Assembly: GCA_023261815.1 (NCBI GenBank)
Contig: JALNKA010000017.1
Span: forward strand, 1 to 11,839
DNA length: 11,839 nucleotides
Direction: 5' to 3'
From: Candidatus Wolframiiraptor sinensis
GTDB lineage: Archaea > Thermoproteota > Nitrososphaeria_A > Caldarchaeales > Wolframiiraptoraceae
Below, in pieces: positions 44-11,839 of the stretch; within the stretch, counting starts at the first letter, position 1; every line of letters begins with the position of its first letter. The notes under the pieces were generated by a model, which saw nothing but the letters and a program-made list of their open reading frames with translations, was not told the DNA's origin and did no database searches. The position numbers were made by a program, and so were the translations under genes.

Positions 44-1360
44 TTGAGGATTTACTGGGAGGTTTATGGGTGCGCGGCAAACGTCGCTGACGCGGAGATA
101 GCGATCGGCATATTGAGGGGCAGGGGTCACGAGGTTGTCCCGAGACCGGAGGACGCCGACGTCATAGTGGTCTTCACATGCGCCGTTAAGAAGCCTACGA
201 GCGATAGAATGTTCTACAGGATAAGCCGGCTGAGAGAGCTCGGAAAAAGGATCATCGTGGCGGGCTGCATGCCGATTGGGGAGCCGGGGAAGGTTAAGCT
301 CGCGGCGCCGGATGCCGTGATGATAGGCCCGAGATCCATCACGAGGATATGGGAGGCCGTTGAGAGGGGCATAAGCATCCTAGATGATGTTGATGACGTG
401 AAGCTCGGCCTTCCGAGGAGTAGGAGAAGCCCGGTGGTCGCAATAGTGCCGGTATCCGAGGGCTGCGCCTGGAGGCTCTGCAGCTTTTGCATAGTCGCGA
501 GGATCCGAGGCGCTTTCAGGAGCTATCCGTTGGAGCTCGTGCTCGGGGAGGTTAGGAGGTTCCTCGAGGAGGGCGCGAGGGAGATCTGGCTGACGAGCCA
601 GGATATGGGGAGCTATGGGATCGAGTCTGGGAGGAGCATGCTTCCGGAGCTCCTAAAAGCGGTCTCGAGCATCGAGGGCCTGTTCTTCATCAGGGTCGGC
701 ATGATGAACCCGCTATACATCTACCCCGTTAGGGAGAAGCTCGCGGAAGCTTATTTACACCCCAGGATATTCAAGTTCCTTCATCTGCCGGTTCAATCGG
801 GCTCGAATAGGATTCTCAGGAGCATGATGAGGGGCTATACGGTCGAGGCATTCAAGAAGATAGTCGAGGAGTTTAGGCGGAGAATACCCGAGCTAACACT
901 CTCGACGGACATCATCGTAGGCTACCCGGCGGAGGATGAGGAGGATTTCGAGGAGACGATTAGGCTCGTGGAGGAAGTGAAGCCTGACATGATAAATATC
1001 TCGAGGTTCTTCGCTAGGCCCGGCACTCCCTCCGAGAGGCTCAAGCCCCTAGACCCTAGGTTGATCAATGAGAGGAGTAGAATTTTGAGCGAGGTTGCGA
1101 GAAGGGTAGCTCTCGAGAAGAATGAGGGGTGGGTGGGCTGGAGCGGCTACGCTATAGTTGATGAGATCGGGGAGCGCGGCGAGGCCATAGCAAGGAACAT
1201 CTACTACAGGCCCATAGTCATCGCGGATGCGCACGGCGAGGATATCCTCGGGAGAATCGTCGAGGTCGAGGTCGAGGATGCCAGGCCATACTGCCTAATG
1301 GCCAGGCTCAGGAGAATAGTGGATCTCGAGGAGGCTCGGGAAGCGATAATAGCCTCTTAG
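44..1360 (+). CDS. mtaB: tRNA methylthiotransferase, archaeal MtaB/MiaB-like radical SAM family (probably t6A37 -> ms2t6A)
   Basis: N-terminal UPF0004 domain has three Cys (YGCAAN, TCAVK, AGCMP). Radical SAM Cys motif GCAWRLCSFC. Family motifs RVGMMNP, KFLHLPVQSGS, TDIIVGYP and SRFFARPGT are present, plus a C-terminal TRAM-like domain. TTG start. Confidence 0.9.
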   Translation: MRIYWEVYGCAANVADAEIAIGILRGRGHEVVPRPEDADVIVVFTCAVKKPTSDRMFYRISRLRELGKRIIVAGCMPIGEPGKVKLAAPDAVMIGPRSITRIWEAVERGISILDDVDDVKLGLPRSRRSPVVAIVPVSEGCAWRLCSFCIVARIRGAFRSYPLELVLGEVRRFLEEGAREIWLTSQDMGSYGIESGRSMLPELLKAVSSIEGLFFIRVGMMNPLYIYPVREKLAEAYLHPRIFKFLHLPVQSGSNRILRSMMRGYTVEAFKKIVEEFRRRIPELTLSTDIIVGYPAEDEEDFEETIRLVEEVKPDMINISRFFARPGTPSERLKPLDPRLINERSRILSEVARRVALEKNEGWVGWSGYAIVDEIGERGEAIARNIYYRPIVIADAHGEDILGRIVEVEVEDARPYCLMARLRRIVDLEEAREAIIAS

Positions 1361-1381
1361 AAGAGCTGATGAGGCTGGAGA

Positions 1382-2518
1382 ATGCTGGAGGAGCTCCTCC
1401 CGGAATATAACTCGATCGTGATACACTATGGCGAGATAGCGCTGAAGAGGAGTAGGCGCGGGAGATTTGAGCGGATACTCCACAGGAATCTTGAGGAGCT
1501 AACAGGCGTGAAGATCAAGAGACTTCAGGGTAGATTCATCATGAATCTTGAGCCGGGCATGGATGCCGCCGGACTGCTCGAGAAGATCGGGAGATCCTTC
1601 GGCGTGGTGTGGTATGCTCCAGCGATAAGGGCATCATCCCTCGAGGAGCTCCGGGATAAGCTGCTGGATATACTGCCCCGAGTCCGCGTGAGGAGCATAA
1701 AGCTCGTGGTCAAGAGGAGCAATAAGAGCTTCCCGAAGACGTCGCTCGAGGTCGCGAAGGAGCTCGGCGGCGAACTTGCCTCAAGGCTCGGGCTGAAAGT
1801 AGATTTGAAGAAGCCTGACCGTGTGGTTCAAGTCGAGATCACGGAGGACGGCATCTATGCATCACTGATGAAGCTTAGGGGGCCGGGCGGGCTACCGCTC
1901 GGAGCATCTGGGAAAATCCTCGGCCTCTATTCGGGCGGAGCCTGCTCAGCGCTAGCATGCTGGTTCATGATGAAGAGGGGCTGCAGGATCGATTTGCTTC
2001 ACATTCATGATGAGGAGTTGGGCGAGGCCGTAATCAGGTCGGAGCTCATGCGCAATGCTGAGAGGCTCCTCGAATACGCCTCGAGAATCAGGGTTTACCT
2101 TGCATCCTCGAGCCCTCTTCTGAGCTTGATGGAGGGGGCGCCGAGCGTTGAGAAGCCCACGATCAGGATCGCGTTCATGCTCAGGCTCGGTGAGGAGGTC
2201 GCCAGGCTGAAGGGCTACCCCGGCCTGGTTCTCGGATCGCGCCTCGAGGGCTCGGTCGAGCTTGACGGCCTCCTGCAGATGCTCTCCATGAGAAGCCTCC
2301 CGGTCCATATGCCCCTAATAGCCCTCACGAGCGAGGAGATCTCGAGAAGATGCGAGGCCCTCGGGCTTCACGCTCTCACGGGCCGGCGAGAAAATTATCC
2401 CGCAATTCCAGATCCCCTCGATCTCTGGAGGAGGCTCGAAGAGCCCGTGAGGCGGGCGATCGAGAGGCTCGAGGTCTATGATCTCAGGCTTGGAGCTGGG
2501 CCCGCGCAGATCACTTAG
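1382..2518 (+). CDS. ThiI-like THUMP-domain protein (tRNA 4-thiouridine synthase family) with degenerate catalytic motifs
   Basis: N-terminal IHYGEIALK, THUMP domain (VKRSNKSFPKTS...VDLKKPD), GPGGLPLG and MMKRG are typical of ThiI. The PP-loop reads SGGACS instead of SGGxDS. Confidence 0.8.
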   Translation: MLEELLPEYNSIVIHYGEIALKRSRRGRFERILHRNLEELTGVKIKRLQGRFIMNLEPGMDAAGLLEKIGRSFGVVWYAPAIRASSLEELRDKLLDILPRVRVRSIKLVVKRSNKSFPKTSLEVAKELGGELASRLGLKVDLKKPDRVVQVEITEDGIYASLMKLRGPGGLPLGASGKILGLYSGGACSALACWFMMKRGCRIDLLHIHDEELGEAVIRSELMRNAERLLEYASRIRVYLASSSPLLSLMEGAPSVEKPTIRIAFMLRLGEEVARLKGYPGLVLGSRLEGSVELDGLLQMLSMRSLPVHMPLIALTSEEISRRCEALGLHALTGRRENYPAIPDPLDLWRRLEEPVRRAIERLEVYDLRLGAGPAQIT

Positions 2519-3983
2519 CCAGCCTCAGGAGCTTCGCTGGACTTGGCAAGAGCACTTCGCAGCTTATCTCACCCGCCTCGGCGAGCCTCTGAAACTCCTG
2601 GGGGCTCTCCGTGTGCACGGGTATTAGGACTCTGGGCCTTATCTCATTGATGATCTCTATCAGGGTCTCTCGGTCCGCGTGGCCGGAAGAGTGTGCGATT
2701 CTCAGATCCAGCCTGAGCAAATTCACCCATCTCTCGAATCTCGCCCACTCTATCTCCTGCTCCTCGTCATGCGGCTCGCTCGTGGATACCACTAGGCCTG
2801 AGCCCGGTCTTGGCCTCACCTGAGCAAGCTCCAGCACCTGATCCAGCCCGCCGAGAATCAGCAAATAATCTCCCTGCTTCTTCGAGATCTCCTCAGCCTT
2901 TACTAGTGCTCCGGGCTTCCTGCCATCGAGCCTATCGGCATACATTTTCCTCAGCCATCCCCGATAATGCTGCGATTCGAGGTCATAGCCTCCTCCTGTG
3001 AGGGATCTGCGCTCAAAGTAAATGCCGGCGCCCCTCAGATCAGGGAGCGGTATCTTGGTGCCCGACTCCGCCAGCCGGTCTATCAGGTGGGCGGCTCTCG
3101 GGCAGAGAACGGGGATTCTTCCAAGTTCCTCCGATAACTGGATTATGCTCCTGACCCTATCCACGTCCGCCGGGGAGATTATGATGCAGGCGAGCTTACC
3201 CACCTTATCCTCCAAGTATCTCCTTATATCCCGGATGACCTCATCCTCGCGAACCATTATGGATGAGTCTATCCGCGTTCCCTCGATTATTAGGTACTCT
3301 ACTCCAGCAGCCCGCTCGATGAACCTGTCGGTTAGGCTCTTGAGAGCGCCATGCCTCCTGATATCGCCGGTATAGGCGAGGGAAAGATCCTCAATCACGA
3401 AGCTGAAGGCCGCTGGAATCGAGTGATCTATCGGGCATGGGGTTACGTGGAAGGGCGCGCTCGGGATGCTGGAATATTCCTCAAAGATCGCGATCGATCT
3501 CTCCCGCGGCTCGCGGCGCTCCTCAATTCTATTCCTCACCTCGAAAATCTCCGCCTCGATTCCGGATGCTGCCGAGGACTCGAGCATCGCCTCCATAATC
3601 GTCCTCATAGACCTGCTCATGGCCAGCATGATCTTGTCAGACAGGAAGCCTGATGCGCCATAATGATCCCTATGAGCGTGCGAGAAGATGCACATTGATG
3701 CCTCCACCGGCTCGCCCTTCTCCAGGATCTCGCCAACCCTCTCATCTATGCCCACTAAATCATCGCGGTAAATTCCCCTAATTCTTGGAAGTATCCCGGA
3801 GTAAAGGTAATAGTAGAGCGTGTTGGCGACCGTGAGCGCCCGGTAGCCGAGAAGATAATCCCTCTTCCTCTTCAGGTTGATCCCGAAGTCTAGGAGCACA
3901 GCATCCCCGCCCGATGAGACCGCTATCTTATTGCCCCCAACGCAGTCCGCGCCATCCAGCACCCTGAGCTCGAACGCTGGCAT
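2511..3983 (-). CDS. Metallo-beta-lactamase/beta-CASP hydrolase, RNase J-like nuclease
   Basis: Motifs GGNKI, LLDFG, SHAHRDH (HxHxDH), DHS, YTGD, EGT, HSSGHA and PVHTE. GGGAGGG SD precedes the ATG. Its 3' end overlaps the convergent ThiI-like gene by 8 nt. Confidence 0.85.
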   Translation of the reverse strand: MPAFELRVLDGADCVGGNKIAVSSGGDAVLLDFGINLKRKRDYLLGYRALTVANTLYYYLYSGILPRIRGIYRDDLVGIDERVGEILEKGEPVEASMCIFSHAHRDHYGASGFLSDKIMLAMSRSMRTIMEAMLESSAASGIEAEIFEVRNRIEERREPRERSIAIFEEYSSIPSAPFHVTPCPIDHSIPAAFSFVIEDLSLAYTGDIRRHGALKSLTDRFIERAAGVEYLIIEGTRIDSSIMVREDEVIRDIRRYLEDKVGKLACIIISPADVDRVRSIIQLSEELGRIPVLCPRAAHLIDRLAESGTKIPLPDLRGAGIYFERRSLTGGGYDLESQHYRGWLRKMYADRLDGRKPGALVKAEEISKKQGDYLLILGGLDQVLELAQVRPRPGSGLVVSTSEPHDEEQEIEWARFERWVNLLRLDLRIAHSSGHADRETLIEIINEIRPRVLIPVHTESPQEFQRLAEAGEISCEVLLPSPAKLLRLAK

Positions 3984-4011
3984 CCCTCCCGATAACCCAC
4001 CTTAAACCAGG

Positions 4012-5079
4012 TTATAGCATTGCATCGATGGGCGGGCCTCGCTCGATGAGGAGGCCGGATATTCTTCGCTCTAGGCTCTCGCTCTGCGTGGCTCTCACGA
4101 ACAGGCTCTTGCGCCTGAGCTCCTCGAGATTCGAGGCGCCCACATAGCCCATACCGCTCTTTAGCCCGCCGATGATGAGCTTTACGACCTCGCGCACGCT
4201 GCCCTTATACGGGACGTAGCCCGAGAGACCCTCGGGGATCAGCTTAGAGTACCTGTCCAGCTTCTCTATGACCTCCGGGCTCCCCATACCCCTATACCTC
4301 TTCAGCTCGACCCCATTTCTCTCGATTACCTCTCCCGGCGCCTCATCCGTTCCAGCGAGCATTCTCCCGAGCATCACGCAGTCCGCTCCTGCCGCGAGGG
4401 CCTTGACCACGTCCCCTATCCTCTTGACCCCGCCATCGGCTATCACAGGCACGCCGTAGCTCGATGCCACGTCCGCGACCCACGCGATCGCCTGGAGCTG
4501 CGGGACGCCCACGCCGCAAACCTCCCTCGTGAAGCACATGGAGCCGGCGCCGAGGCCAACTCTGAGGCCATCAGCTCCTGCTGATATGAGGTCCTCCGCT
4601 CCCTCGGGGGTCACGATGTTCCCGGCCACCACGTCCACGTCGGCGATCTCCTTGTATCTCCGGATGCTCCGGATAACGTTCTCGCTATGGCCATGAGCCG
4701 CGTCTATTACCACGAGGTCTGCGCCTGCGTCCACGAGCTTTCTGAAGCGCTCCTCGTCCAGCGCCCCGACCGCCGCGCCCACGATCAGCCCCCGCTCCTT
4801 CACCCTCCTAACCTCCTCAGCCTCCCTATCGGCCGGCATATTCCTATGGATTATCCCGATGCCGCCCTCCTCCGCCAACGCGATCGCCATCTTCGCCTCC
4901 GTCACGGTATCCATCGGCGAGCTGACGATCGGTATTCTCAAGGACACGTTCCTAGAAACCCTCGTGGAGACGTCGATATCCTCCTTCGGAATAACAGACG
5001 AGAATCTCGGAATTAGGAGGACGTCATCGAAGCTGAGAGCGGCCGCCGCCCTCTCCAGCTTCCTCGAATAGAACCCCAT
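4012..5079 (-). CDS. guaB: Inosine-5'-monophosphate dehydrogenase lacking the CBS subdomain
   Basis: Motifs [35 protein letters not shown], catalytic loop [22 protein letters not shown], flap RY and PEG. The start is placed at ATG 5079 (MGFYSRK) because the upstream 11 codons from 5112 look non-homologous. Confidence 0.88.
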
Positions 5080-5256
5080 ACTGGGAGACCTGCATCGCCG
5101 GCTTTTATCCATTAAGGCACCTCAGCCCGGGTATCAGTCATCATCCAGGAGTCAGAAATACCCGCGCTCATCACACGTGATATATCATCTAAGTGGGGGT
5201 ATTTTTATCTTCGGAAGTCATCCTTTTACCCTTGGAAAATCTTCTGAAAATCAGCC

Positions 5257-5535
5257 ATGAGCGCCGAGCTGCTTGAGAGGGCTGTGGAAGAGTATAACAA
5301 GTTTAGAAGCCCTGAGGCCGTCGTCAGGATAATCGAGCTGAGAGATGATGGGTTCGTCGCGGAGTTCTCCGGAAGCTTCTGCCTAACATGCGGGGTATAT
5401 GATTGGCTTGAGGACCTGAGGTACGAGATTCGCAGGCTCGACCCGGAGCTTGACGCGGTGATAGATAGCTGGAGACAAATATCTGATGACTCGATCATAG
5501 TGGAGTTTAAGCTCATCAGAAAGCCCGCGGAATAG
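5257..5535 (+). CDS. Small acidic CxxC protein, possibly Nfu/NifU-C-like Fe-S carrier
   Basis: 92-aa ORF with codon usage like the neighbouring genes, filling the gap between guaB and iscU. It contains FSGSFCLTCG after two predicted beta strands. The function is inferred. Confidence 0.7.
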   Translation: MSAELLERAVEEYNKFRSPEAVVRIIELRDDGFVAEFSGSFCLTCGVYDWLEDLRYEIRRLDPELDAVIDSWRQISDDSIIVEFKLIRKPAE

Positions 5536-5556
5536 GTTTCAGCGCACGGTTACCGA

Positions 5557-6051
5557 TCAAACCCTCTCGCCGCCTATCCTCCTAGAGAGTATCTTCATGA
5601 GCTCCTCTTCTTCGAGAGCGTGCCTCTCATCCGGCGTCAACTCCTCGGGCAGCCAATCAGGCTTAACCCTATCCCTGTAATATGCTCTTATCGCTCTTCT
5701 CAGGGCTCCGACCGCGAGAACTCCGCAGTGGTATTTTATCGGCGGCAACCCTCCCAGCTCATCGGATAGCTGCTTCCAGCTTATCCCCCACGCCTCCCTC
5801 AAGCTCTTTCCCTTTATCATCTCCGTCAGCAGGCTGGCGGTCGCGATGTTCGCCGCGCATCCATAGCTCTCGAAGGATGCATCCACGATCCGCTCCTCAT
5901 CGATCTTGAGGTATATCGTTATCATGTCGCCGCAGGCTAGGCTGCCGGCTGTGGCCACCGCGTTCGCATCCTCCATTCTCCCGAGGTTCTTCGGGTTCCT
6001 GAAGAGCTCGAGGACCTTGGGGCTGTAGGGGAGCGGTATTCGCGAGGACAT
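5557..6051 (-). CDS. iscU: Fe-S cluster scaffold IscU/NifU-N with C-terminal extension
   Basis: Motifs YSPKV...NPKN, CGD, YGCAA and LPPIKYHC give three Cys ligands, the Asp and the His. It starts 2 nt after the iscS stop. Confidence 0.93.
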   Translation of the reverse strand: MSSRIPLPYSPKVLELFRNPKNLGRMEDANAVATAGSLACGDMITIYLKIDEERIVDASFESYGCAANIATASLLTEMIKGKSLREAWGISWKQLSDELGGLPPIKYHCGVLAVGALRRAIRAYYRDRVKPDWLPEELTPDERHALEEEELMKILSRRIGGERV

Positions 6052-6053
6052 CC

Positions 6054-7283
6054 CTACATCATCACCTTCGGGGAGATCGATCTGATCCTGCTCACGGCTT
6101 CCGGTATCTGCTCTAGAGCATATTTTATGTCCTCTTCCTCGTGCATGGGCGAGACCTTCATCAATATGCTCCCGTGCGCTATTTCATATGGCCTCCCTAT
6201 AGCTAGGAGGACGTGCGATGGCTCAAGGGTTCTACTCGTGCAGGCGCTGCCGCTGGAGACGTATACTCCCCTGAGGCTCAGCTCGACCGTTAATGCCTCC
6301 CCCTCGCAGTAGAGGAAGCTCATGTTCGCGTTATCGGGCGCCCTCCTATCGCCCTTTGGTCCATTCAGCATGACGCCATCAATATTCCCAAGCAATCCAT
6401 TTATTAGGAGATCCCTTAACCGCCTCATCTTGTATCGGCATTCATCGAAGCTTCTTCTGAGGATCTCAAGCGCTTTCGCGAAGCCGGCGATCGCGGGCAC
6501 GTCCTCCGCCCCGGGCCAGAGCCTTTGAGAGCTCAGCTGACCGTGGAGTATTGGATCGATTTTTATGCCCTCCCTGATGTAGAGGGCTCCGACGCCCTTC
6601 GGAGCAAATGCCTTATGGCCGCTGAAAGATGCCATATCCACCCCAGCCTTCTCCAAGTCCAGCGGTATTCTTCCCAGAGCATCGCAGGCGTCGGTGTGGA
6701 TCACGGCCTCGGGGCTCTTATCTCTCACGACCTCGGCTATGGCTTTCAGGTCCTGTATGGTTCCGATCTCGTGATTTACGGCCGCGACGCTCACCATTAG
6801 GGTATTCCCATCAACTTGGCCGGCGAGGTAATCCAGATCAACAAACCCCTCTTCGTCGACCGGTATTTCCACGAGCTTAAACCCATTCTCCTGAAGCCTC
6901 TCCGCCGGAAACTTGATGCTCAGGTGCTCTATCTGCGAGACTAGTATCTTTCTCCGGCCACGGCTCGCCTTCGCAAAGCCCATGATCGCCAAGTTGTTCG
7001 CCTCAGTCCCATTATGGGTGAAAATAATCTCGCCATCGCTCACGCCTATCAAATCCATCAAGCCGACCTCAGCCTCCAAGATTACCTCGAGGGCGCGCCA
7101 TCCCGGCCTATGCGTTATCGAGGGGTTGCCATAGATCCTGTAAGCCTCCTGAAGCGCCGCCAGAGCCTCCTCGAAGGCCAAGCCCGAGTTCTCCAAGTCA
7201 AGGTAAACCTCGCGGCGCGGACCGCCATGAGCCCTCACCAAGGACTTAACCTTTTCGAGCTGCTCGAGCAGATCTTTCCCCAA
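6054..7283 (-). CDS. iscS: Class I cysteine desulfurase-like protein (IscS/NifS) with atypical substrate pocket
   Basis: Motifs GNPS, GTEANN, IEH, NHEIG, HTDA, SGHK (PLP Lys), PKGVGALY and SSGSACTS...EPSHVLLAIG. Directly upstream of iscU. TTG start. Confidence 0.88.
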   Translation of the reverse strand: MGKDLLEQLEKVKSLVRAHGGPRREVYLDLENSGLAFEEALAALQEAYRIYGNPSITHRPGWRALEVILEAEVGLMDLIGVSDGEIIFTHNGTEANNLAIMGFAKASRGRRKILVSQIEHLSIKFPAERLQENGFKLVEIPVDEEGFVDLDYLAGQVDGNTLMVSVAAVNHEIGTIQDLKAIAEVVRDKSPEAVIHTDACDALGRIPLDLEKAGVDMASFSGHKAFAPKGVGALYIREGIKIDPILHGQLSSQRLWPGAEDVPAIAGFAKALEILRRSFDECRYKMRRLRDLLINGLLGNIDGVMLNGPKGDRRAPDNANMSFLYCEGEALTVELSLRGVYVSSGSACTSRTLEPSHVLLAIGRPYEIAHGSILMKVSPMHEEEDIKYALEQIPEAVSRIRSISPKVMM

Positions 7284-7310: not shown

Positions 7311-7326
7311 CGTGTAATATTAGCTT
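7311..7326 (-). promoter_or_regulatory. Candidate TATA box for iscS-iscU
   Basis: Minus strand reads AAGC-TAATATTA-CACG. TAATATTA (7315-7322) lies 32-39 nt upstream of the TTG at 7283. Confidence 0.45.
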
Positions 7327-7678
7327 AATGCTTTGACCTAGGCGGCCTCAGGGCCACGCCATGCCTGCTCGCAATTCTCCTAACTGCCAGCTCGCATATC
7401 ATGCAGAAGGGCATATCCTCCGGCGGAGAGCCCCTCGAGATCGCCTTCTCGACATAGGCATCAACGTAGTCTCTGATCTCCTTGCACTTTGAGAGCATTC
7501 TCGCCATCTTGACCCCCCTCTTCGAATTGAGGTAATGGCTTATCGAGGGTTGAGTTACCCCGAGAAGCTCAGCGACCTCCGACTGGGTTAAATTATGCTC
7601 CTCTATGAACTTCTTGGCTATCATCAGCCTTATCGCCGGAATCACGTATCGCGCCGAAATTTCACACGGGAACCTCAA
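7325..7678 (-). CDS. Archaeal XRE/Cro-type HTH transcription regulator (COG2522-like) with Cys motifs
   Basis: PCE...YVIPAIR N-terminus, HTH LTQSEVAELLGVTQPSISHYL, KRG and C-terminal FCMIC. TTG start. Confidence 0.85.
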   Translation of the reverse strand: MRFPCEISARYVIPAIRLMIAKKFIEEHNLTQSEVAELLGVTQPSISHYLNSKRGVKMARMLSKCKEIRDYVDAYVEKAISRGSPPEDMPFCMICELAVRRIASRHGVALRPPRSKH

Positions 7679-7703: not shown

Positions 7704-7718
7704 GCGGTTATAAGCATT
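7704..7718 (-). promoter_or_regulatory. Candidate TATA box for the HTH regulator gene
   Basis: Minus strand AATGC-TTATAA-CCGC. TTATAA (7708-7713) lies 30-35 nt upstream of the start at 7678. Confidence 0.5.
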
Positions 7719-7950
7719 ACCTCTGAGGCTCCACGCAAATCTCAAAATAATCATCCACTTGCCTGAATCCAATGAACTTGTGCCCCGTTCTCGAGGCCCA
7801 TTCCCTAACATCATTGGGTGACCGGGGATCCGTTGAGAGGAGTTTTATTCTCTTCCCCGGCTCGGCCTTCCTCATAACTCTTATCAGCATGATTAGGGGG
7901 CCCGGGCATGACTTGTACCTGGCATCCACTATTATCTCATCGCTCATCAT
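7717..7950 (-). CDS. tusA: TusA/SirA-family sulfur carrier protein
   Basis: IIVDARYKSCPGP (CPxP persulfide motif), STDP...DVREWA...GH, about 77 aa. The start is ATG 7950 or 7947 after GGGGAG, not 8010. It overlaps the upstream gene's stop. Confidence 0.9.
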   Translation of the reverse strand: MMSDEIIVDARYKSCPGPLIMLIRVMRKAEPGKRIKLLSTDPRSPNDVREWASRTGHKFIGFRQVDDYFEICVEPQR

Positions 7951-9274
7951 GGCTCCCCTTTGCTTGCCTCTCAAAATAATCTTCAAATTGCTCCGCATAT
8001 TTATACCCACTGTCCGGGAAAATCAGGACATAATTTCCGGAGCTCGCAGCAATATTCTTAAAAGCGTGGAAGACCGCGCCGGCGCTCAGCCCAATGAGTA
8101 GCCCCTCTTTCCGCGCGACCTCCAGCGCTCCTTCTATCGCCTCATCCCTCTTCACATCAACTATTTCGTCGAACTCGACCATGTGAATCCACTTCATCCC
8201 GGACTCGATTCTCCTGATGCCCGGGATTATCTCGTTGGGCGCGGGTTGGACTCCAACCAGCTTAACCCTTTCACCATACTTGCTCTTGAAGTATAGTGAG
8301 ATCGCGCTCATATGTCCGGATGTTCCGAGGCCGCCTATGATGAAATCGGGGATTATGCCGATTGACTGAAGCTGCTCATCCAGCTCCCTCGCCGTATGCT
8401 TCAGGTGCACCTTAAAGTTAGCGTCGTTCTCGAACTGGTTCAGATGCGTTACCCCATCTCTTCTCGCCATCGCATCCACGTCATTCACCGCCTCGACGGT
8501 CAAGGTTGTTGGGACTCTAACCACCTCAGCTCCCAGAACTCTCAGGAACGTATCACTGCACTTTTGAATCGTCCTAGGTATGAACAGCCTGGCCTTCCTG
8601 CCCAAGATATTCGCTATCGCGGCGAGCGCTATCCCGGTATTCGTCGAGGTCGCCTCGTATAGAACTTCTTTCAGGGCGCCGGCCTCCATGGCCTCCACGA
8701 TCATGGACCAGGCTATCCTATCCTTGACACTGTTGCTGAAGGGGTTGAAGCACTCGAGCTTGGCGTAGACGGCCCTGTCGCCGGATGAGTAGGATGAGAG
8801 CTTGACGAGCGGCGTCGGCCATCCTTCATAGAGGAGCTCAAGAGTGCTATCATACACTTTTAGGAGGCGGCGATCGCGCTTCCATGAGGCGCCGAGATCC
8901 TCAAGGGAATATTCAACCTGTCCGGGTTCTCGCGGAACCTCCACCTCGAAATCCTCCTGGGACAGGCGGTGTCCCGCATAATGGAGCCTGAGAAGATCAT
9001 TTACCTCGAGAACCTCGGGCTCAGGGCTTATGCGCCTAACTCTCACCTCATCACCATTCACTACATACGCTGGAGCTTTCAGCGCTGAGAGCAGTTTTAA
9101 TGCCTCGAGAACCTCCGTGCCCTTTAAGACGAACATACTTTTCCTCTCAGCTATGATAGGCGTGCTCAGCTTACCGCTTCTCAGGATGACTCTATACGCT
9201 GATAGCGTTTTCTTGAGATCAGGCCTGAAGATCTGCTTCAGCTCCCGTATATCTATGAGCTCTACGCTGCTCAT
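7937..9274 (-). CDS. Cysteine synthase of O-phosphoserine sulfhydrylase type (PLP fold II) fused to an N-terminal degenerate SerK/ParB-Srx-like domain
   Basis: Motifs GWPTPLV, KLECFNPFSNSVKDR (PLP Lys), EATSTNTG, NQFENDANF, LGTSGHMSA, IPGIRRIESG and PDSGYKY match my recollection of Aeropyrum pernix OPSS. Residues 1-128 align with the 10588 ORF. Confidence 0.88.
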   Translation of the reverse strand: MSSVELIDIRELKQIFRPDLKKTLSAYRVILRSGKLSTPIIAERKSMFVLKGTEVLEALKLLSALKAPAYVVNGDEVRVRRISPEPEVLEVNDLLRLHYAGHRLSQEDFEVEVPREPGQVEYSLEDLGASWKRDRRLLKVYDSTLELLYEGWPTPLVKLSSYSSGDRAVYAKLECFNPFSNSVKDRIAWSMIVEAMEAGALKEVLYEATSTNTGIALAAIANILGRKARLFIPRTIQKCSDTFLRVLGAEVVRVPTTLTVEAVNDVDAMARRDGVTHLNQFENDANFKVHLKHTARELDEQLQSIGIIPDFIIGGLGTSGHMSAISLYFKSKYGERVKLVGVQPAPNEIIPGIRRIESGMKWIHMVEFDEIVDVKRDEAIEGALEVARKEGLLIGLSAGAVFHAFKNIAASSGNYVLIFPDSGYKYAEQFEDYFERQAKGSHDER

Positions 9275-10500
9275 CGTTCAGCCCTCACCTCCAGCTCGCG
9301 GCATATGCGGCTCAAGGTCTCTCTAAATACTTCAAGCTCGTCCATCGTATTGTAAAGGTAGAATGAAGCGCGGACAGAGCTCTTGATTCCAAGCGCCCTG
9401 TGGAGGGGTTGCGCGCAGTGAAATCCCGATCTAACGGCTATATTCCCAAACTCGTCTAGGAGCGCGGCGACGAGATCCCCGCTCACTCCCCTGAGATTAA
9501 AGGAGACTATGCCGCATCGCTCTTCCGGGTCTCGCGGCCCGTAAATCTCCACACCATCCAGCTCCTCCAAGATTTCTAGGGCGCATGCCGTGAGCCTCTT
9601 CTCATGCTCCCTTATCACATCAAGGCCTATGGCCCTGAGATATCTGATAGCGGCGGCCAAGCCTATTGCCCCGGCAATATTGGGTGTTCCGGGCTCGAGC
9701 CTCCATGGCATCTCATTGAGCCTGTAGCCATCGAGCTCGACGTGCGAGATCATCTCTCCCCCGCCGAAGGGTGGATCCAGCTCCTCTTCAACGCCTTCTC
9801 GAATGTATAGGCATCCTATCCCGGTCGGGCCGAGAAGCTTGTGACCGCTAAAAACCAAGAGATCGCATTCCAAGTCCCTTACGTTGACCGGCATGTGAGG
9901 GACCGATTGAGCTGCATCCACGAGGAGGAGGGCTCCATGATCATGCGCGATCCTAGCGATGCTCTTCACGTCATTCATCGTACCCAGCACATTTGATACA
10001 TGGCATACCGCAACCAATCTTGTATTCCTCGACAGCTTTCCCTCGAGATCCTCGAGGTCTATTATCCCAGATGATGTTATTCCGGCGTAGCTTAGCTTGA
10101 GGCCGAATCTCCTGCTAACTATCTGCCATGGTATCATGTTCGAGTGATGCTCCATTATGGATGAAATTATCTCGTCGCCCCGCCTCCACTTGATTCCATA
10201 AGCGGCTAAATTTATCCCCTCAGTCGCGTTCTTCACAAAGATGAGCTCGCTGGGCTTGCAGCCAATAAGCCTCGCAATCTCCGCCCTCGCTTCCTCATAA
10301 AGATCCGTCGCCTCCTGCGCGAGTGAATACACTCCCCGATGAACGTTTACCGAGTAATTTTCATAATAGCTTTTCACGGCTTCTATGACTTGCCTGGGCT
10401 TCAAGCTCGTCGCCGCATTATCAAAGTAGATGAGCGGCTTATCGCCCCGCTTTCTAGATAAAACCGGGAAATCCTCTCTAAGCTTGCTGAGATCCTTCAA
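9271..10500 (-). CDS. sufS: Class II cysteine desulfurase (SufS/CsdA)
   Basis: Motifs REDFP, YFDNAATS, NVHRG, MEHHSN, DAAQS, SGHK, EPGTPN, RSGFHCAQP (class II catalytic Cys) and VRASFY. TTG start with a strong SD. ATGA overlap with the next gene. Confidence 0.95.
   Translation of the reverse strand: MKDLSKLREDFPVLSRKRGDKPLIYFDNAATSLKPRQVIEAVKSYYENYSVNVHRGVYSLAQEATDLYEEARAEIARLIGCKPSELIFVKNATEGINLAAYGIKWRRGDEIISSIMEHHSNMIPWQIVSRRFGLKLSYAGITSSGIIDLEDLEGKLSRNTRLVAVCHVSNVLGTMNDVKSIARIAHDHGALLLVDAAQSVPHMPVNVRDLECDLLVFSGHKLLGPTGIGCLYIREGVEEELDPPFGGGEMISHVELDGYRLNEMPWRLEPGTPNIAGAIGLAAAIRYLRAIGLDVIREHEKRLTACALEILEELDGVEIYGPRDPEERCGIVSFNLRGVSGDLVAALLDEFGNIAVRSGFHCAQPLHRALGIKSSVRASFYLYNTMDELEVFRETLSRICRELEVRAER
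9285..9292 (-). promoter_or_regulatory. Shine-Dalgarno site for the cysteine synthase gene
   Basis: GGAGGTGA on the minus strand inside the sufS 3' end, with a 10-nt spacer before ATG 9274. Confidence 0.75.
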
Positions 10501-10504
10501 ATCT

Positions 10505-10512
10505 TCACCTCC
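10505..10512 (-). promoter_or_regulatory. Shine-Dalgarno site for sufS
   Basis: GGAGGTGA on the minus strand with a 4-nt spacer before TTG 10500. Confidence 0.8.
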
Positions 10513-10532
10513 TTCACAATTAAGCTCTCTTG

Positions 10533-10566
10533 GCGGTAATAAGGCTTGCGAGAAAATTTATATTAC
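10533..10566. promoter_or_regulatory. Divergent promoter region for sufS and the serK-like gene
   Basis: Plus strand GAGAAAA-TTTATATT (BRE+TATA, TATA at 10557-10564) lies 24-31 nt before ATG 10588. Minus strand AAGCC-TTATTA-CCGC (10533-10547) lies upstream of the sufS SD. Confidence 0.6.
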
Positions 10567-10587
10567 AGAGTTATGTAGCAGGGCCTG

Positions 10588-11076
10588 ATGCCTGAGAATG
10601 CATACTCGGCCGATGAGGCAGGCGTGGAGCGAGATTCTGCCGATGTTATTCGAGAGCTCTCCGGCGTGCTCCTCATACTTCCAATAGATCTCCTTAGGCC
10701 TCATGAAGGGGTTGAGGATGAGCTCGTCGATGAGCTCGCCGAGGAGATCAATAAGGATGGAGTTATTAAGAAGGCGATATTGGTGGATAAGCGGACGCTC
10801 GTAGTCATCGATGGCCATCATCGGATAATGGCTCTCCGGAAGCTGGGCTGCAGGAAGATTCCATGCCTTCTAGTGGACTACTCATCGGAGAGAATTCACG
10901 TGTTAAGCTGGAGCGGTGGCGAGCCGATTCCGAAGAGCGCGGTTCTGAGGGCTGGGCTGGAGGGCAAGCTGATGCCTCCCAAAACCACCAAGCACATAAT
11001 AAGAAGCCGTGGGCAGACCTTTCACGCATCGGAAATCGAGCCGAATCTAAGCATACCGCTTAAAGATCTCCTCTGA
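10588..11076 (+). CDS. ParB/Srx-fold protein, miniature SerK/SbnI-like putative free-serine kinase
   Basis: LRPHE, VIDGHHR, LRKLG..KIP..LVDY, VLSW, G...PPKTTKH and C-terminal IPLKDLL form the motif series I recall for Thermococcus SerK (MKPHE, IVDGHHR, VYTW, SPKTTRH, VKLEDLF). No ParB HTH domain. Confidence 0.8.
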   Translation: MPENAYSADEAGVERDSADVIRELSGVLLILPIDLLRPHEGVEDELVDELAEEINKDGVIKKAILVDKRTLVVIDGHHRIMALRKLGCRKIPCLLVDYSSERIHVLSWSGGEPIPKSAVLRAGLEGKLMPPKTTKHIIRSRGQTFHASEIEPNLSIPLKDLL

Positions 11077-11114: not shown

Positions 11115-11839
11115 TTAAGCCGAGAGGAGAATTGTTAGGCTTACGGTAGCAGATATTTTCCCCTCTCCGGGGGCTATTGGTATCTCGGCCATCTCTGCAG
11201 TTCTAATTATTATCGGGGGAGGAGCCTGCTGATGCGAGATACTTATGGAGTCTATCCTAGCAATTTTGAGACCGAGCTGCGATGCGGCCACCTCCGCCTT
11301 CTTCAACGCATCATCTATTGCCTCTTTGATTGCTTGAGCCGCGAGCCCAGATTCTCTCTCCTCGGATAGCGTGAACTGGAGGCTGCTCATTCTATTGGCT
11401 CCGGCGGCGAAGGCCGCATCTATGGCTCTGCCGACCAGCGATATGTCGGAGATCTCGACCATCAAGTTGTAGGATGCCTCGTAATCCACTATCTGAGGAG
11501 GCCTCTGCTCCCAATCATATCTGGGGTTCACCGTTATCCCAATGGTCTCCATATTATCCCTGCTTATGCCGAGGGCCTCTAGGGCGGAGAAGATCCTCGA
11601 CATCTTCGAGGAGCACTCGCTCAAAGCGTCTGATGCTGTCTTCCCATATCCCAGCGCTGCGAAAATCACGATCGACTTATCAGGCACATAGGATGCCTCA
11701 CCATATCCCGAGACGCTCAACGTAGTATAATTCTGGGGCTTAGCATAGTTGTTCTGCCCGCCAGCTACTTCATTGCCTGTTGCCACCGCCGCAAAATTCG
11801 CTATCAAGACACCTAAAGCCGCAACAGCTATCAACCCGA
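11115..11839 (-). CDS. SIMPL/DUF541-family exported protein, 5' end probably outside the window
   Basis: Hydrophobic N-terminal segment, LSVSGYGEASYVPD, PRYDW, IDAAFAAGAN, LQFTLS, A..DA..KA...A...G and PIAPGE..ISATV. The frame is open to the window edge. Confidence 0.85.
   Translation of the reverse strand, partial: GLIAVAALGVLIANFAAVATGNEVAGGQNNYAKPQNYTTLSVSGYGEASYVPDKSIVIFAALGYGKTASDALSECSSKMSRIFSALEALGISRDNMETIGITVNPRYDWEQRPPQIVDYEASYNLMVEISDISLVGRAIDAAFAAGANRMSSLQFTLSEERESGLAAQAIKEAIDDALKKAEVAASQLGLKIARIDSISISHQQAPPPIIIRTAEMAEIPIAPGEGKISATVSLTILLSA

Follow-up and report, generated by a model that had tools for sequence, protein, structure and literature searches.

The closest described systems to the locus analyzed here are the free serine kinase SerK and the O-phosphoserine sulfhydrylase (OPSS, CysO) of Aeropyrum pernix, whose N-terminal domain was reportedly described by Oda et al. 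in 2005 as a new alpha/beta fold and not as a relative of ParB or SerK. In Thermococcus, SerK makes O-phosphoserine for cysteine synthesis, together with a phosphoserine-using CysK (PMC5120207). That report describes the serine-to-cysteine route for Thermococcales and Desulfurococcales only; in 2016 it gave four genera as the sole holders of clear SerK homologs and recorded no linkage with cysK genes (PMC5120207). The window examined here is the whole 11,839-nucleotide stretch of contig JALNKA010000017.1 from Candidatus Wolframiiraptor sinensis. It encodes a 445-aa CysO homolog and, divergently, a 162-aa SerK-like protein, which we call mini-SerK (Table 1). The N-terminal domain of the CysO homolog, designated SerK', is predicted to be a catalytically dead paralog of mini-SerK. 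The best overall explanation, which we consider modestly probable, is that an ancient dead SerK' domain of single origin sits on CysO as a non-catalytic adaptor for SerK. The enzymes and the fold are known; the novelty lies in the pseudo-enzyme arrangement, which is widespread, and in the reinterpretation of a structure solved long before.

Homology of the N-terminal domain to mini-SerK

The first-pass annotation of this DNA had proposed that codons 1-128 of the CysO open reading frame (ORF; 8891-9274 within 7937-9274, minus strand) align nearly end to end with the mini-SerK ORF, and it had placed both correctly. Between the single sequences the resemblance is weak (BLASTP E 0.043, 23% identity, 81 columns). 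Moreover, Pfam and NCBIfam give no family match in residues 1-138, ParB_N (PF02195) included, so genome annotation misses SerK' entirely. These two results would suit a similarity that is chance or compositional, with residues 1-128 being an unrelated N-terminal extension. Profile comparisons argue against that reading. Once relatives of the fusion had been added, some from its own genus and family and others from 1.84 billion scanned representatives, hhalign aligned 19 N-terminal domains with 10 mini-SerKs at a probability of 99.3% and E 4.4e-20 over 132 columns (residues 1-131 with SerK residues 25-162). This alignment contains the three blocks that the first-pass annotation had matched. The two profiles also find each other in whole-genome searches, the N-terminal profile recovering the mini-SerK of the window (E 1.6e-13) and the SerK profile recovering the N-terminal domain (E 1.2e-6). 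Against the PDB, the best matches of the N-terminal profile are SerK (E 0.005) and then SbnI, both among the families that the first-pass annotation had named for such a check. A phmmer search of the 1.84 billion representatives with residues 1-138 gave eight matches, the first triple fusion (see below) among them, and a word-indexed homolog search with residues 1-140 gave one near-identical protein only. A language-model Atlas look-up with residues 1-135 returned ParB_N clusters (score 0.92, 23 of 30 matches), which we take as a lead and not as a test. At the level of sequence profiles, end-to-end homology of the N-terminal domain to the neighboring mini-SerK is confirmed.

A scan with the full-length alignment as query, one genome per species, yielded 176 confirmed relatives. 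The alignment used from here on has 80 rows, namely the window, 77 of the best 80 of the 176 loci and two earlier loci (L009 duplicates L106); L095, L107 and L110 were left out, their genes being split or cut so that no PALP ORF reaches 370 aa. An AlphaFold2 (AF2) model of the 445-aa protein built on these 80 sequences had a predicted local distance difference test score (pLDDT) of 92 and a predicted template modeling score (pTM) of 0.90, with pLDDT 84-96 in the blocks of the N-terminal domain. A single-sequence model (pLDDT 37) was discarded. In a Foldseek search against the BFVD viral predicted structures, 23 of the 50 matches listed are named ParB, sulfiredoxin (Srx) or Spo0J. At least 21 ParB/Srx-named matches have a probability of at least 0.98 over 73-119 columns (E 1e-3 to 3e-2); because their query range is not given, we infer their assignment to the N-terminal domain, which counts against leaning on them. 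The model suggests a ParB/Srx-type fold for this domain, and these fold matches agree with the Atlas clusters. Together with the hhalign, reciprocal and PDB profile matches, this makes a chance similarity extremely improbable, and we rejected it.

Predicted loss of the kinase motifs

Mini-SerK matches the PDB free serine kinases 5x0b and 1vk1 (E 2e-11 to 5e-11) and SbnI (E 4e-8). Its alignment to SerK skips from chain residue ~103 to ~205, so that a middle insertion of ~100 residues is absent. The NCBIfam SerK equivalog (NF053625) matches at E 7.4e-17, at profile positions 18-101 of 244 only, and Pfam PF02195 (ParB_N) gives 23.1 bits, below its cut-off of 26.3. Nevertheless, mini-SerK keeps the motifs PHE, DGHHR and PPKTTKH, aligned to those of 5x0b and 1vk1, and the residues H39, E40, D75, G76, H78, R79 and H136 are invariant in all 70 SerK domains compared. 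The Glu of PHE is said to have been identified as the catalytic base by Nagata et al. in 2017; PDB entries 5x0j and 5x0k carry Gln at this E40 column.

In the hhalign alignment, the N-terminal domain of the CysO homolog has QIF in place of PHE, KGTEV in place of DGHHR and SQEDFEV in place of PPKTTKH, which bears out the motif loss claimed in the first-pass annotation. The loss extends across the family: Glu is found at the E40 column in none of the 80 N-terminal domains, His at the H78 column likewise in none, and Arg at the R79 column in two. The domain is therefore homologous to the kinase but by its sequence not a kinase, and an active second kinase was rejected on these column counts. We conclude that SerK' is, as judged from these replacements, catalytically dead.

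Most of the N-terminal domains keep motifs of their own, DG[YH]E and GPKLPPKSF, and these hint at ligand binding over pure scaffolding, a point against the adaptor explanation. SerK' could accordingly be an allosteric sensor: no longer a catalyst, it would still take up serine, phosphoserine or a nucleotide and adjust CysO activity whether or not it touches SerK. Its consensus reads DGYE...GPKLPPxSF, with Gly in 64/80, Glu at the H78 column in 64/80, Tyr or His at the H77 column in 52/80 and, at the column aligned to SerK K132, Lys in 38/80. The domain also persists in genomes without a detected SerK, and ParB-fold domains are versatile nucleoside triphosphate binders (PMC12704722). However, the DGHHR Arg is nearly absent, as noted above, and the short forms described below are without the whole C-terminal half of the domain. 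Moreover, the copy in the window has lost the remaining motifs (KGTEV, and SQEDF for PPKSF); indeed, its genus has lost both and lies on long branches of the tree of N-terminal and SerK domains. We consider a sensor quite unlikely.

The catalytic part of the 445-aa protein

Residues 139-433 match A. pernix OPSS (PDB 1wkv) with a phmmer E-value of 3.9e-60, compared with ~1e-34 for ordinary CysK and CysM, and the protein has a Pfam PALP match at 4.7e-49. In the Foldseek comparison of the 445-aa AF2 model with the PDB, only pyridoxal phosphate (PLP) enzymes are among the matches listed. The top matches are 1wkv, 3vsc, 6l0p and 6l0q (1wkv: E 1e-34, target-normalized TM-score [TMt] 0.85-0.87), and the aligned columns number 439-450 against the A. 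pernix OPSS chains versus ~285-330 against other cysteine synthases. The protein is thus a PLP enzyme of fold type II, with A. pernix OPSS as its nearest match. In the phmmer alignment, K184 falls on K127, the lysine that forms the Schiff base with PLP in A. pernix OPSS, and the 3vsc sequence shows the K127A mutation at this position. R354 aligns with R297. According to Makino et al., who cite the finding, Arg297 of A. pernix OPSS recognizes the O-phosphoserine phosphate (PMC5120207). Across the 80-sequence alignment K184 never varies and R354 hardly does, so both the Schiff-base lysine and the phosphate-recognizing arginine are present. The source genome, 92% complete, has no cysE above cut-off. 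On these grounds we classify the 445-aa protein as an O-phosphoserine sulfhydrylase of the CysO/OPSS type, with phosphoserine as its predicted substrate. The source genome also encodes a second, plain cysteine synthase homolog (G000:C5:5439-6293; ~300 aa, 37% identical) without the N-terminal domain.

Architectures, distribution and origin of the family

The best 80 of the 176 relatives come from metagenome-assembled genomes (MAGs) labeled Nitrososphaeria/Aigarchaeota/Ca. Wolframiiraptor, many Bathyarchaeia, Culexarchaeum, Methanomethylicia, Thermofilaceae, Desulfurococcales and Pyrodictiaceae; the SerK' family is widespread in thermophilic Thermoproteota-type archaea. Three architectures account for the 80 aligned proteins. 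The most frequent is a triple fusion, SerK-SerK'-CysO, with 38 members of 527-618 aa, mostly in Bathyarchaeia-labeled MAGs (this count takes in L071, L089 and L103, which have 527-562 aa, along with two genes truncated where their locus stops). The SerK'-CysO form of the window accounts for another 25 (~430-460 aa). The remaining 17, in MAGs labeled Desulfurococcales, Pyrodictiaceae and Thermofilaceae, carry a SerK' shortened to ~70-90 residues, lacking the whole C-terminal half of the domain; their total length of 378-424 aa compares with the 389 aa of the A. pernix enzyme. When the ~3-kb flanks were searched in all six frames, a SerK gene was found beside 12 of the 17 short forms, where it directly adjoins the cysO gene on the upstream side and shares its strand, and beside 5 of 24 long forms.

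The first-pass annotation spoke of mini-SerK and a dead "copy of itself", and as a statement about a local duplicate this did not hold. In a tree of 63 long N-terminal domains and 70 SerK domains (quick search, LG+G4, 148 columns, the 17 short forms left out), a single branch separates the two sets, with a Shimodaira-Hasegawa-like approximate likelihood ratio test (SH-aLRT) value of 100. All N-terminal domains lie on one side of it, and a recent local duplication was rejected on this basis. Because one such branch splits the N-terminal domains from SerK, the duplication was single and old: SerK' is an old mini-SerK paralog from one duplication, common to several archaeal classes.

The short forms connect the family to the A. 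pernix structure. Alignment of the short-form protein L124 to 1wkv begins at residue 43 and covers both the ...LEELG strand and the helix that corresponds to HHRxxAL-LG. A profile built from the short N-terminal domains alone matches 1wkv residues 23-75 (E 0.01), then SbnI (E 0.017), and aligns with the SerK profile at 98.1% probability (E 1.2e-13, 69 columns). Ahead of these PDB matches came a designed helical repeat protein that had 0 significant stretches; it was set aside as a repeat artifact. Taken with the 439-450 Foldseek columns given above, these results make the N-terminal domain of A. pernix OPSS very likely a truncated SerK' relic. The truncated domain appears, then, to have been in the PDB already, unrecognized, which would place the N-terminal domain of this 2005 crystal structure in an evolutionary family.

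Within the window's order (76 genomes), SerK-like genes occur in 66, the long fusion in 9, and the short fusion in 8/8 genomes of one genus. Several loci depart from the three architectures. In L010 (G012:C50), SerK' (1083-1529, 148 aa) and the PLP part (1549-2412, 287 aa) occupy separate adjacent frames, as also in L095; in G012 this may be a true split or may stem from a frameshift or an error of assembly. L016, L017 and L019 (family f3, same order) have a 206-210-aa SerK, middle insertion included, immediately next to both a divergent SufS and a plain cysteine synthase of 303-306 aa, thus repeating the three-gene theme without the SerK' domain. In G003, a genome of the same genus, one contig (G003:C39:5367-7174) holds remnants of both the CysO 3' end and mini-SerK, with in-frame stops; the two genes seem to have decayed together, plain CysK being all that this genome retains.

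Possible roles of SerK'

As the first-pass annotation had it, both genes belong in one serine to O-phosphoserine to cysteine context, and because SerK-SerK'-CysO fusions exist in nature, it is well supported that kinase and synthase act in one such route. By family knowledge, mini-SerK would phosphorylate free serine and CysO would swap the phosphate for sulfur to give cysteine. In the explanation that we favor, SerK' would have arisen once by duplication of mini-SerK and then traveled with CysO as one module in the three forms. Its most likely role would be that of a non-catalytic adaptor, a former SerK dimer partner that would keep kinase and synthase together and thereby let phosphoserine arise at its point of use. 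The order SerK-SerK'-CysO fits a former SerK homodimer with one subunit turned adaptor, and docking of the kinase onto the synthase by the dead domain is plausible. A prediction of the CysO and mini-SerK complex, run with their own alignments and without controls, reached at best 0.27 against a mark of 0.32 and speaks neither for nor against binding.

Several results weigh against this explanation. Mini-SerK scores 61.3 bits against NF053625, where the curated cut-off is 380. Because of this score and the skipped middle insertion, it is a compact SerK-like protein outside the curated equivalog; by its sequence it is a predicted kinase. A. pernix OPSS, which has the truncated domain only, is reportedly active alone in vitro. 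SerA-like dehydrogenases are present in the source genome, and phosphoserine could therefore also come from 3-phosphoglycerate. Co-occurrence, which the first-pass annotation had proposed to survey, is only partial: the 38 triple fusions and the SerK genes beside 12 of the 17 short forms agree with it, but in 20 genomes with the fusion and no nearby SerK, an intact mini-SerK lies elsewhere in just 4. In one further genome the only SerK frame is broken by internal stops, another 8 contain nothing closer than longer ParB/SerK-like proteins matching the N-terminal half, and 7 show no SerK-like gene but the N-terminal domain itself, their completeness not being reported. G013, 93% complete, has the fusion, and no SerK was found in it. 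Given the 7 of 20 without SerK, SerK' cannot serve as a kinase dock only. Since it is kept there, it matters to CysO itself, in structure or regulation, and it would also be, we suppose, a built-in part of the structure in this CysO subfamily. Among the genomes with a long fusion, G078 has a sole mini-SerK match (G078:C82:6226-6645) that contains three in-frame stops (one TGA, two TAA) and may be a pseudogene.

The same 7 genomes lend weight to a reading in which SerK' is a structural relic, a stabilizing or oligomerization domain of a thermophilic CysO subfamily, and the gene neighborhood reflects shared pathway regulation only. The progressive truncation in 17 of 80, together with the truncated domain of the solved A. 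pernix enzyme, is in line with this, and the pTM of 0.90 suggests firm packing on the PLP domains. In contrast, SerK stands covalently ahead of SerK' in 38 of 80 and abuts 12 of the 17 short forms as the upstream gene, and co-regulation alone hardly accounts for such linkage in several classes. A relic with no tie to the kinase is, in our view, unlikely. A bolder version of the adaptor explanation would have mini-SerK work only as a pseudo-dimer with SerK', which would complete or activate its site and hand phosphoserine to CysO. This kinase-pseudokinase-synthase metabolon, of which the A. pernix domain would be a vestige, is a tentative possibility; if real, it is covalent in Bathyarchaeia and split into two genes in the window. 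We continue to favor the ancient, dead adaptor, with a structural part in CysO besides.

Gene content of the window

The coordinates of the features are collected in Table 1. The sulfur-handling genes around cysO form a minus-strand run plus one divergent gene. The sufS gene sits between both SerK-type genes; with 4 nt shared between its stop and the start of cysO, it is probably co-transcribed with the latter. The mini-serK gene is separate and divergent, 1.3 kb from cysO, and the intergenic region between it and sufS may be a promoter region shared by mini-serK and sufS-cysO. A TusA-like neighbor is also present in the relative L004. Positions 44-7283 form a sulfur-trafficking and thiolation neighborhood, which includes a 92-aa ORF with a CxxC pair; no Pfam family matches this ORF at E <= 0.1, and it is possibly a small Fe-S or sulfur-relay accessory protein.

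Table 1. Features of the window, with coordinates, strand and basis or remark.
Feature	Coordinates	Strand	Basis or remark
MiaB-like radical-SAM protein	44-1360		
ThiI/THUMP	1382-2518		
Beta-CASP-type RNA metallo-hydrolase	2511-3983		
Short IMPDH/GMP-reductase-domain protein	4012-5112		
92-aa ORF with CxxC pair	5257-5535	+	Between IMPDH-like and IscU genes
IscU/NifU_N	5557-6051		
NifS-like class-V aminotransferase	6054-7283		
Helix-turn-helix (HTH) regulator	7325-7678		
TusA-like sulfur carrier gene	7717..8010	-	Pfam TusA 9.3e-20; overlaps or abuts cysO 3' end
Linker and PLP-dependent O-phosphoserine sulfhydrylase part (predicted), residues 138-445 plus stop	7937..8863	-	
SerK' domain, residues 1-137 of the CysO homolog	8864..9274	-	Degenerate mini-SerK paralog; predicted ParB/Srx-type fold
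SufS-type cysteine desulfurase	9271..10500	-	TIGR01979 sufS, 497 bits vs cut-off 475
Divergent intergenic region, sufS-cysO operon (probable) vs mini-serK, 87 nt	10501..10587	.	ORF coordinates
Mini-SerK, 162-aa SerK-like protein	10588..11076	+	PDB SerK matches; NCBIfam SerK
SIMPL/DUF541 protein, N-terminal hydrophobic stretch	11115-11834	-	Truncated by the window end

Relation to known systems

A compact SerK is physically linked to a phosphoserine-using cysteine synthase in many MAGs labeled Bathyarchaeia, Nitrososphaeria/Aigarchaeota, Methanomethylicia, Culexarchaeum, Thermofilaceae, Pyrodictiaceae and Desulfurococcales. The natural SerK-SerK'-CysO fusions offer test objects for substrate channeling and a candidate two-step Ser to Cys biocatalyst, and SerK' would be a clear example of a pseudo-enzyme within the ParB-CTPase fold. 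The first-pass annotation knew of no description of this arrangement. Our search of the full-text literature agrees, having found no SerK-like domain on a cysteine synthase in the accessible text of sources that include PMC5120207, PMC12704722, PMC13759103, PMC5424206 and PMC9499178; the supplements of PMC12704722 and PMC5120207 may list fusions of this kind or gene neighborhoods. The ParB-CTPase fold fusions surveyed in 2025 belong to the same fold superfamily as that predicted for SerK'; their archaeal partners include CBS, ASCH, MT-A70, HTH and other domains, and the main text makes no mention of PALP, pyridoxal or cysteine synthase (PMC12704722).

Among other serine-activating systems, the bacterial CysE-CysK complex also has such an enzyme attached to a sulfhydrylase, but as a functional analogy only (PMC6829319). 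CysE, an acetyltransferase, uses its C-terminal tail for binding, and the complex involves neither a ParB-fold kinase nor a pseudo-enzyme domain. SbnI of Staphylococcus aureus (5UJD, 6NR6) is a ParB-fold free serine kinase matched both by mini-SerK (E 4e-8) and by the N-terminal domain profiles (E 0.01-0.03). However, it is a bacterial protein of ~254 aa, also a transcriptional regulator in siderophore synthesis according to its PDB molecule name, and has no link to a cysteine synthase. Nearer to mini-SerK are SerK of T. kodakarensis (Tk-SerK; TK0378, 5X0B) and PF0380 (1VK1), which have a ParB-type fold and share PHE, DGHHR and PKTT.H with it; Tk-SerK has 242 aa and the ~100-residue insertion, whereas mini-SerK has 162 aa and no insertion. 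None of the Tk-SerK motif residues is found in the N-terminal domain of the CysO homolog. To our knowledge, no dead paralog has been described for Tk-SerK. Nor is Tk-SerK fused to or clustered with cysK (PMC5120207).

For the synthase, the closest system remains A. pernix CysO (1WKV, 3VSC, 6L0P), which is the best match of the catalytic part in both sequence and fold and with which the PLP lysine and the phosphate-binding arginine are shared. The two differ at the N terminus: A. pernix CysO, at 389 aa, has about the first half of the domain, whereas the protein of the window carries the full domain of ~135 residues.

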